Assembly: GCF_003334355.1 (NCBI RefSeq)
Contig: NZ_QOWP01000026.1
DNA from: Escherichia coli
GTDB taxonomy: Bacteria > Pseudomonadota > Gammaproteobacteria > Enterobacterales > Enterobacteriaceae
DNA: 55,000 nucleotides
Direction: 5' to 3' (one strand)
Shown piece after piece: positions 12,859 through 30,401 of the stretch. A program made the translations under genes and the position numbers. Below the pieces are notes generated by a model. That model searched no databases. It saw only the letters and a program-made list of their open reading frames with translations, and was not told where the DNA came from. Positions within the stretch are counted from its first letter, which is position 1. Every line of letters starts with the position of its first letter.

Positions 12859-14358
12859 ATGACAGAGCCGCATGTAGCAGTATTAAGCCAGGTCCAACAG
12901 TTTCTCGATCGTCAACACGGTCTTTATATTGATGGTCGTCCTGGCCCCGCACAAAGTGAAAAACGGTTGGCGATCTTTGATCCGGCCACCGGGCAAGAAA
13001 TTGCGTCTACTGCTGATGCCAACGAAGCGGATGTAGATAACGCAGTCATGTCTGCCTGGCGGGCCTTTGTCTCGCGTCGCTGGGCCGGGCGATTACCCGC
13101 AGAGCGTGAACGTATTCTGCTACGTTTTGCTGATCTGGTGGAGCAGCACAGTGAGGAGCTGGCGCAACTGGAAACCCTGGAGCAAGGCAAGTCAATTGCC
13201 ATTTCCCGTGCTTTTGAAGTGGGCTGTACGCTGAACTGGATGCGTTATACCGCCGGGTTAACGACCAAAATCGCGGGTAAAACGCTGGACTTGTCGATTC
13301 CCTTACCCCAGGGGGCGCGTTATCAGGCCTGGACGCGTAAAGAGCCGGTTGGCGTAGTGGCGGGAATTGTGCCATGGAACTTTCCGTTGATGATTGGTAT
13401 GTGGAAGGTGATGCCAGCACTGGCAGCAGGCTGTTCAATCGTGATTAAGCCTTCGGAAACCACGCCACTGACGATGTTGCGCGTGGCGGAACTGGCCAGC
13501 GAGGCTGGTATCCCTGATGGCGTTTTTAATGTCGTCACCGGGTCAGGTGCTGTATGCGGCGCGGCCCTGACGTCACATCCTCATGTTGCGAAAATCAGTT
13601 TTACCGGTTCAACCGCGACGGGAAAAGGTATTGCCAGAACTGCTGCTGATCGCTTAACGCGTGTAACGCTGGAACTGGGCGGTAAAAACCCGGCAATTGT
13701 ATTAAAAGATGCTGATCCGCAATGGGTTATTGAAGGCTTGATGACCGGAAGCTTCCTGAATCAAGGGCAAGTATGCGCCGCCAGTTCGCGAATTTATATT
13801 GAAGCGCCGTTGTTTGACACGCTGGTTAGTGGATTTGAGCAGGCGGTAAAATCGTTGCAAGTGGGACCGGGGATGTCACCTGTTGCACAGATTAACCCTT
13901 TGGTTTCTCGTGCGCACTGCGACAAAGTGTGTTCATTCCTCGACGATGCGCAGGCACAGCAAGCAGAGCTGATTCGCGGGTCGAATGGACCAGCCGGAGA
14001 GGGGTATTATGTTGCGCCAACGCTGGTGGTAAATCCCGATGCTAAATTGCGCTTAACTCGTGAAGAGGTGTTTGGTCCGGTGGTAAACCTGGTGCGAGTA
14101 GCGGATGGAGAAGAGGCGTTACAACTGGCAAACGACACGGAATATGGCTTAACTGCCAGTGTCTGGACGCAAAATCTCTCCCAGGCTCTGGAATATAGCG
14201 ATCGCTTACAGGCAGGGACGGTGTGGGTAAACAGCCATACCTTAATTGACGCTAACTTACCGTTTGGTGGGATGAAGCAGTCAGGAACGGGCCGTGATTT
14301 TGGCCCCGACTGGCTGGACGGTTGGTGTGAAACTAAGTCGGTGTGTGTACGGTATTAA
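12859..14358 (+). CDS. feaB: Phenylacetaldehyde dehydrogenase (NAD-dependent aldehyde dehydrogenase)
   Basis: Aldehyde dehydrogenase family with catalytic Cys context QGQVCAAS and ELGGKNP; start placed at the ATG after the track GTG (MTEPHVAVL). Confidence 0.9.
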
Positions 14359-14375
14359 TCTGGTTCGCTCATAAG

Positions 14376-14405
14376 TAAAAAACGGCACCTGGTGCCGTTT
14401 TTTTG
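14376..14405. terminator. Bidirectional intrinsic terminator between convergent feaB and tynA
   Basis: aaaaaacggcacc/ggtgccgtttttttt: perfect stem flanked by an A-run and a T-run. Confidence 0.75.
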
Positions 14406-14415
14406 TCTGAAACAA

Positions 14416-28785: not shown

Positions 28786-28819
28786 TCTGGCCCTGGTGGG
28801 GTAAAGCGCCAGGGCCAGA
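28786..28819 (+). other. GC-rich stem-loop between paaK and paaX (possible attenuator or processing site)
   Basis: tctggccctgg...ccagggccaga, extendable by flanking cgtatcg/cgatacg; no U-run follows. A TGATTC half-site lies about 20 bp downstream. Confidence 0.4.
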
Positions 28820-28878
28820 AGTCGATACGACCTGTGCTATGATTCATAAATCACAACAATAACAACAGACTGAAGCGA

Positions 28879-29829
28879 ATGAGTAAACTTGATACTTTTA
28901 TCCAACATGCTGTAAACGCTGTTCCGGTCAGTGGCACATCTTTGATCTCCTCTCTGTATGGTGATTCGCTTTCCCATCGTGGTGGTGAAATCTGGTTGGG
29001 TAGTCTGGCTGCTTTGCTGGAAGGGCTGGGATTTGGTGAGCGTTTCGTGCGCACCGCTTTGTTTCGTCTTAATAAAGAAGGCTGGCTGGATGTTTCCCGC
29101 ATCGGGCGACGCAGTTTCTATAGCCTCAGTGATAAAGGCTTGCGCCTGACGCGACGGGCAGAAAGTAAAATTTATCGCGCAGAGCAACCTGCATGGGATG
29201 GTAAATGGCTCCTGTTGCTCTCGGAAGGTTTAGATAAATCAACGCTGGCTGATGTCAAAAAGCAGTTGATCTGGCAAGGTTTTGGCGCACTGGCACCCAG
29301 CCTGATGGCATCGCCGTCGCAAAAACTGGCCGATGTACAGACACTTTTGCATGAAGCGGGTGTGGCGGATAACGTGATTTGTTTTGAAGCGCAAATACCA
29401 CTGGCGCTTTCTCGCGCAGCACTGCGTGCCAGAGTAGAAGAGTGCTGGCATTTAACTGAACAAAATGCCATGTACGAAACCTTTATTCAGTCATTCCGCC
29501 CGCTGGTGCCGCTTTTAAAAGAGGCGGCAGACGAGTTAACCCCGGAGCGGGCATTTCATATTCAGCTTTTACTGATCCATTTTTATCGCCGTGTCGTCCT
29601 TAAAGACCCATTGTTGCCGGAGGAGTTGCTTCCGGCACACTGGGCAGGGCATACGGCGCGTCAGCTGTGTATCAACATTTATCAGCGCGTAGCGCCTGCT
29701 GCTTTAGCGTTCGTTAGTGAAAAAGGTGAAACCTCGGTCGGTGAACTGCCTGCGCCGGGAAGCCTGTATTTTCAACGTTTTGGCGGCTTGAATATTGAAC
29801 AGGAGGCGTTATGCCAATTTATCAGATAG
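28879..29829 (+). CDS. paaX: Transcriptional repressor of the paa operons (phenylacetyl-CoA responsive)
   Basis: 316 aa ORF immediately after paaK; matches PaaX as I recall it. Confidence 0.9.
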
Positions 29830-30401
29830 ACGGTCTGACTCCGGTTGTGCCAGAAGAGAGTTTTGTCCATCCGACAGCGGTATTGATCGGCGATGTTATT
29901 CTCGGCAAGGGCGTTTACGTTGGGCCAAATGCCAGCCTGCGTGGCGATTTTGGTCGTATCGTGGTGAAAGATGGCGCGAACATTCAGGATAATTGCGTTA
30001 TGCACGGTTTTCCCGAGCAGGATACTGTTGTAGGAGAAGATGGACATATTGGTCATAGCGCTATCCTTCACGGCTGCATTATCCGCCGCAATGCATTAGT
30101 GGGAATGAACGCGGTAGTGATGGACGGTGCGGTGATTGGCGAGAACAGCATTGTTGGTGCATCCGCATTTGTGAAAGCCAAAGCAGAAATGCCAGCTAAT
30201 TACCTGATTGTCGGCAGCCCGGCGAAAGCGATTCGTGAACTCAGTGAGCAGGAGTTGGCATGGAAAAAGCAGGGTACGCATGAGTACCAGGTGCTGGTGA
30301 CACGCTGTAAGCAGACGTTACATCAAGTCGAGCCATTGCGGGAAATTGAACCTGGCAGGAAACGCCTGGTATTTGATGAGAATCTGCGACCGAAACAGTA
30401 A
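29811..30401 (+). CDS. paaY: Hexapeptide-repeat (left-handed beta-helix) thioesterase PaaY
   Basis: 196 aa ORF with a hexapeptide-repeat pattern; overlaps the paaX 3' end. Confidence 0.9.

Follow-up and report, generated by a model that had tools for sequence, protein, structure and literature searches.

The 55,000-nucleotide stretch of Escherichia coli DNA considered here (NCBI RefSeq assembly GCF_003334355.1, contig NZ_QOWP01000026.1; hereafter the window) carries, at positions 11718–30401, what we take with a probability of about 97% to be the canonical 17-gene fea/tyn/paa locus of the species (b1384–b1400 of strain K-12), intact and in essentially the K-12 allele. A first-pass annotation of the sequence had described a complete and contiguous cluster for the use of 2-phenylethylamine and phenylacetate and had called it well described. 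That remark is correct, and the phenylethylamine/phenylacetate locus found here is already known, ordinary, and K-12-like in its allelic state. The span assigned to the cluster needs an adjustment at one end only: 30401 is right, whereas 12859 is the first base of feaB and leaves out feaR (11718–12623), a gene that the annotation itself had named, so that the true span is 11718–30401.

Evidence for this identity comes from three directions: strain MG1655, curated family models, and annotated E. coli genomes, and in each the claim of a complete cluster stood up, with all 17 genes present in K-12 order. That order, feaR-feaB-tynA-paaZ-paaABCDEFGHIJK-paaXY, is kept together with K-12 orientation, and the block lies between ydbL and ynbG/ydbA. 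With MG1655 1443000–1470000 taken as reference and each K-12 gene mapped onto the window, the two strains agree in gene content, order, and orientation, in gene and intergenic lengths, and in overlaps; the 22,342 base pairs (bp) from 8391 to 30732 contain no indels and 72 substitutions, and 35 substitutions lie between feaR and paaY. The alignment gave the same lengths, starts, and stops as in K-12 and no internal stop in any of the 17 genes, in agreement with the earlier view that every gene is intact. The five stop/start overlaps noted at the same time could be read directly from the coordinates: 4 nucleotides (nt) at paaE/F, 1 nt at paaF/G, 11 nt at paaH/I, 1 nt at paaI/J, and 19 nt at paaX/Y.

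A megablast search of 12859–30401 against 5,426 complete E. coli genomes returned many matches at 100% coverage and 99.8–100% identity, annotated as feaB, tynA, paaZ, paaA-K, paaX, and paaY. In the best match, strain PSS-12 (NZ_AP027697.1), the annotation places feaR directly upstream and ynbG with ydbA downstream. This is the nearest complete genome, and over 12859–30401 it is separated from the window by 3 substitutions and one 1-nt indel. The two have in common Lys122 of PaaF, Arg265 of FeaB, the paaH allele, and a G at 19047; unlike the window, PSS-12 has Thr442 in TynA, one T more in the Pa promoter region, and an insertion sequence (IS), IS3, in ydbA. The extra T (L001, about 10340; about 19197 in the window) makes TTTT in PSS-12 against TTT in both the window and K-12, and is the sole indel across the cluster. 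A lesion in the window was considered as the source of this 1-nt length difference and rejected: the additional base belongs to PSS-12, and the window has the K-12 length.

Gene products were also scored against curated NCBIfam equivalog models with their own cut-offs, which 16 of the 17 passed; FeaB is the exception. On the minus strand lie feaR (11718–12623), encoding the 301-amino-acid (aa) AraC-family activator of tynA and feaB (NF007243, 504.9 bits, cut-off 199); tynA (14416–16689), encoding a periplasmic copper/topaquinone primary-amine oxidase as a 757-aa precursor with a 30-aa signal peptide (NF011285, 1632.6 bits, cut-off 1278); and paaZ (16937–18982), encoding a 681-aa bifunctional oxepin-coenzyme A (CoA) hydrolase and 3-oxo-5,6-dehydrosuberyl-CoA semialdehyde dehydrogenase that is identical to its K-12 counterpart (TIGR02278, 1210.5 bits, cut-off 562.8). 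The remaining genes are on the plus strand. The phenylacetaldehyde dehydrogenase FeaB (12859–14358, 499 aa) is identical to K-12 FeaB at 498 of 499 residues; it is without an E. coli-type equivalog, and its best NCBIfam match, the StyD phenylacetaldehyde dehydrogenase model, gives 612 bits, below the cut-off of 850. Its translation contains the catalytic motifs expected of an aldehyde dehydrogenase dependent on nicotinamide adenine dinucleotide, with E272 in LELGGK and C306 in QVCAAS.

The paaABCDE genes (19267–22840) encode the phenylacetyl-CoA 1,2-epoxidase (PaaABCE) and the accessory protein PaaD, all five identical to K-12 and all above the cut-offs of their models (TIGR02156, TIGR02157, TIGR02158, TIGR02159, and TIGR02160, for PaaA to PaaE): paaA at 19267–20196 (517 bits, cut-off 280), paaB at 20208–20495 (167 bits, cut-off 85), paaC at 20504–21250 (372 bits, cut-off 133), paaD at 21265–21762 (242 bits, cut-off 108), and paaE at 21770–22840 (596 bits, cut-off 421). 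They are followed by paaF (22837–23604; NF007239, 485.4 bits, cut-off 371), by paaG (23604–24392; TIGR02280, 482.9 bits, cut-off 345), and by paaH for the 475-aa 3-hydroxyadipyl-CoA dehydrogenase (24394–25821; TIGR02279, 855.8 bits, cut-off 669). Next come paaI for a 140-aa phenylacetyl-CoA thioesterase (25811–26233; TIGR02286, 176.9 bits, cut-off 118.9), paaJ (26233–27438; TIGR02430, 745.2 bits, cut-off 597), and paaK for the 437-aa phenylacetate-CoA ligase (27465–28778; TIGR02155, 790.5 bits, cut-off 646). The series ends with paaX (28879–29829), for the 316-aa repressor released by phenylacetyl-CoA (TIGR02277, 410.9 bits, cut-off 264.6), and paaY (29811–30401), for a 196-aa thioesterase that clears 2-hydroxycyclohepta-1,4,6-triene-1-formyl-CoA, a dead-end product (TIGR02287, 377.8 bits, cut-off 319.6). 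PaaG, PaaI, PaaJ, PaaK, PaaX, and PaaY are likewise identical to K-12.

Residues 31–757 of TynA align to crystal structures of the mature E. coli amine oxidase (ECAO), 1OAC and 1DYU among them. In an alignment of 125 diverse full-length copper amine oxidases, Y399, D413, and Y496 show no variation and N495, H554, H556, and H719 almost none, and all seven are present here; the protein has the hallmarks of a copper/topaquinone amine oxidase, namely the topaquinone tyrosine in N495-Y496-D497, the catalytic aspartate D413, three copper-binding histidines, and a signal peptide.

Across the locus, 11 of the 17 proteins match K-12 exactly and the remainder differ by 1–3 residues, the seven changes being FeaR I136V, FeaB H265R, TynA T442I, PaaF N122K, and PaaH D86N, I132V, and I344V. 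To judge from comparison with six other strains spanning 98.0–100% identity, those in FeaR, FeaB, and PaaH are ordinary polymorphisms. V136, the sole FeaR change, is the allele in all six; R265 of FeaB, which precedes E272 by 7 residues, is a common allele in nature and is found in three of them, with the exact FeaB protein on at least 1000 public contigs; and all three PaaH changes occur in other strains, the exact PaaH protein again being on at least 1000 public contigs. Lys122 of PaaF is flanked by Glu109 and Glu129, both intact, which we take to be the catalytic pair, and rat mitochondrial enoyl-CoA hydratase (1DUB, 1EY3) has lysine at the aligned position. Taken together, the amino-acid changes look benign at the level of sequence. 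The substitutions are unevenly spread: of the 72 between 8391 and 30732, 25 lie in paaH (24465–25740) and 37 in ydbH (8391–11030), with 0–2 in each neighbouring gene, and the two clusters look like short recombination patches in a K-12-like background.

Could the intactness be an artefact, with one or more pseudogenes hidden by assembly or sequencing error? The neighbouring ydbA lacks one nucleotide that an intact allele has, so single-base indels, whether real or introduced by sequencing, do occur in the window. Within 8391–30732, however, there are no indels against MG1655, the PSS-12 sequence is identical across paaA-paaY, and every protein checked is found exactly in independent public assemblies; we therefore consider a hidden lesion extremely improbable. 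A search across the locus turned up no cryptic frameshift, no indel in a promoter, and no substitution in an active site. Nothing that was observed speaks against the identification; the caveats given below concern the phenotype only.

In the regulatory DNA, the intergenic regions from ydbL to ydbA are identical to K-12 save for one base, an A>G change at 19047 in the paaZ-paaA region that is also present in PSS-12. The feaR-feaB divergent promoter region (12624–12858) is identical to K-12 and contains a cluster of three TGNCA-N8-AAA matches at 12751–12798; the tynA promoter region (16690–16892, minus strand), also identical, contains TGGCA-N8-AAA at 16804–16819 on the minus strand and, on the plus strand, another match at 16872–16887. 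TGNCA-N8-AAA is a putative FeaR site, and we treat the boxes at the feaB and tynA promoters as a lead rather than as a test. The hexamer TGTCAC has three copies clustered in the feaB promoter; across the window it is not enriched (24 matches against 25.7 expected).

The paaZ-paaA divergent promoter region (18983–19266), which comprises Pz and Pa, contains two PaaX operator boxes, at 19026–19040 on the minus strand and 19211–19225 on the plus strand. They are the only two matches in the 55 kb to the 15-bp operator pattern WWTRTGATTCGYGWT, a consensus from the literature, and their sequences are identical to K-12. A longer PaaX consensus, TGATTC-N24-30-GAATCA, had no match in the window and was dropped in favour of the 15-bp box.

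A generic scan for promoters and terminators was uninformative (16 promoter-like sites where 17.9 were expected, and 29 terminator-like sites where 21.6 were), and hairpins at the unit boundaries were for that reason folded singly. Between the convergent feaB and tynA genes lies a bidirectional intrinsic terminator (14377–14405), a 12-bp stem between an A-run and a T-run, with fold energies of −16.8 and −18.4 kcal/mol on the two strands (z-scores −3.4 and −4.4). The paaZ terminator (16893–16927, minus strand) has a 10-bp GC-rich stem and then UUUUAUUU (−22.6 kcal/mol, z-score −5.8). Directly 3' of paaK, at the paaA-K/paaXY boundary, there is a strong plus-strand hairpin without a U-tract (28779–28829; −37.2 kcal/mol, z-score −8.1), and a TGATTC half-site stands at about 28839–28844, about 35 nt upstream of paaX; hairpin and half-site are consistent with a separate paaXY unit. 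An intrinsic terminator with a 13-bp stem and a T-rich tail follows paaY (30432–30474, plus strand). These elements stand at the expected unit boundaries and agree with the three published units paaZ, paaA-K, and paaXY (PMC13186573, PMC4498308). An Rfam search over 11500–30800 found no RNA family, its one sub-threshold hit being a chance match to HSR-omega_2 (E = 0.89) on the paaK-paaX hairpin.

The mechanism is established for K-12 and is carried over to the window by near-identity, with pathway and regulatory assignments from published work (PMC4498308, PMC13186573, PMC4640556). TynA, exported to the periplasm, would oxidise 2-phenylethylamine to phenylacetaldehyde, ammonia, and hydrogen peroxide; the aldehyde would activate FeaR, which would switch on tynA and feaB (PMC4640556, PMC11542736), and FeaB would convert it to phenylacetate. 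Formation of phenylacetyl-CoA by PaaK would then dislodge the repressor PaaX from promoters Pa, Pz, and Px. PaaABC(D)E would be expected to epoxidise the aromatic ring and PaaG to isomerise the epoxide to oxepin-CoA, leaving PaaZ to open the ring hydrolytically and oxidise the resulting aldehyde; beta-oxidation-like steps by PaaJ, PaaG, PaaF, PaaH, and PaaJ again would yield acetyl-CoA and succinyl-CoA, with PaaI and PaaY presumably acting as protective, safety-valve thioesterases (PMC4498308).

In K-12, phenylethylamine both induces these genes and serves as a source of carbon (PMC4640556). With coding and regulatory DNA essentially the same as in K-12, the expectation of the first-pass annotation that the strain uses both substrates is reasonable, and it very probably grows on phenylacetate and on phenylethylamine as K-12 does. 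Several observations weigh against taking this for granted. In a published screen, growth and amine oxidase activity were seen in only 22 of 39 isolates with tynA, and two of the 17 inactive ones had a wild-type tynA sequence (PMC4640556). The single difference of TynA from K-12, T442I (an A at 15365, in codon 442), is rare and near-private: a 41-mer carrying it has no match among the 5,426 complete genomes, against 3,078 for the 41-mer of the K-12 allele, and the exact protein occurs on only 4 contigs in a large collection. The exact PaaF protein with Lys122 is also rare (9 contigs). The 17 genes of the span are all accounted for, with no transporter among them, and uptake is therefore not encoded in the cluster; trans-acting factors, too, lie outside the window. 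For these reasons intact genes do not guarantee the phenotype, and growth is here something that we infer.

The inactive isolates and the rarity of T442I would fit a cluster that is structurally intact and yet silent or impaired for phenylethylamine, owing to T442I or to a strain-specific regulatory defect outside the window, with phenylacetate still used. We think this unlikely. Position 442 varies among the 125 copper amine oxidases (valine in 41, threonine in 22, alanine in 10), isoleucine being the natural residue in 8; the catalytic and copper-binding residues of TynA are all intact; feaR and the promoter regions of tynA and feaB are K-12-like; and the recurrence of the allele in several independent assemblies is not suggestive of a decaying gene. 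That recurrence, as the exact protein in four public assemblies, also means that T442I is probably not a sequencing error. A further reading, in which T442I and possibly PaaF N122K change the enzymes themselves, with loss of amine oxidase or an altered range of amines, is more doubtful still. Were it true, the strain would be unlike K-12 in its use of aromatic amines despite 17 intact reading frames, and it would be a naturally occurring case of the isolates, tynA-positive yet inactive, that the literature leaves unexplained. Given a variable column 442 and intact active-site residues, however, T442I is most likely neutral, and K-12-like growth remains the prediction that we favour.

Variability of the locus across E. 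coli is already documented: many extraintestinal pathogenic lineages lack it, and some niche-adapted clades, for example bovine mastitis isolates, are enriched for it (PMC4640556, PMC4951805). Among the 5,426 complete genomes, 3,097 (roughly 57%) have the full locus, 1,032 have fragments only, and 1,297 have no match, and the present strain thus belongs with the ~57% of completely sequenced E. coli that retain the whole phenylethylamine/phenylacetate pathway. In the cluster-negative genome Ecol_745 (L011, 6753–7331) the deletion has left a scar, where what remains of feaR, a 3' fragment, runs straight into a 3' remnant of paaY; the 17-gene unit therefore behaves as a single presence/absence block. 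The present copy has little import beyond annotation, and no open question becomes testable through it.

Phenylacetate clusters of other bacteria (Pseudomonas putida, Burkholderia, Rhodococcus) have in common with E. coli the chemistry of PaaK, PaaABCDE, PaaG, PaaZ, PaaJ, PaaF, and PaaH (PMC4498308, PMC13186573). They differ in gene order and in regulators, some species having PaaR where E. coli has PaaX, and physical linkage to tynA-feaB-feaR belongs to the arrangement in E. coli. The P. putida cluster has dedicated permease and porin genes, which the E. coli locus is without.

The wider setting is the E. coli chromosome, and the flanks confirm the K-12 31-min neighbourhood: uspF-ompN-MicC-nifJ(ydbK)-ydbJ-hslJ-ldhA-ydbH-ynbE-ydbL on the left and ynbG-ydbA-pdxI-ydbD-ynbABCD-azoR-hrpA-ydcF-aldA-gapC-cybB-RydC-ydcA-hokB on the right. 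The small RNAs MicC (2458–2578, plus strand, 125 bits) and RydC (54222–54285, minus strand, 92.5 bits) were found by Rfam at the expected K-12 positions.

Immediately downstream of the cluster, ydbA (30732–36793) encodes a large BigA/YdbA-type autotransporter and is free of insertion sequences here, unlike the K-12 copy, into which IS2 and IS30 have inserted. Compared with strain PM7, whose 2020-aa allele is intact, it has a 1-nt deletion near 33784, which leaves two open reading frames (ORFs), 30732–33845 and 33830–36793; the gene is either a frameshifted pseudogene or the product of a sequencing error. In the cluster-positive strains CI5, 2013C-4538, ETEC-2265, and 7CC, ydbA is gone and pdxI comes directly after paaY.

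Farther to the right, gapC (52491–53492, minus strand) is an intact 333-aa ORF, annotated in related genomes as a type I glyceraldehyde-3-phosphate dehydrogenase; in K-12 it is a pseudogene. The window closes within an IS150 copy inserted just past hokB, the end of which occupies about 54924–55000 (~77 bases). Strain PM7 stops matching at the IS150 edge, and the last 160 bases of the window match strain E41 without a difference; the E41 annotation has an IS150-family transposase at this point.

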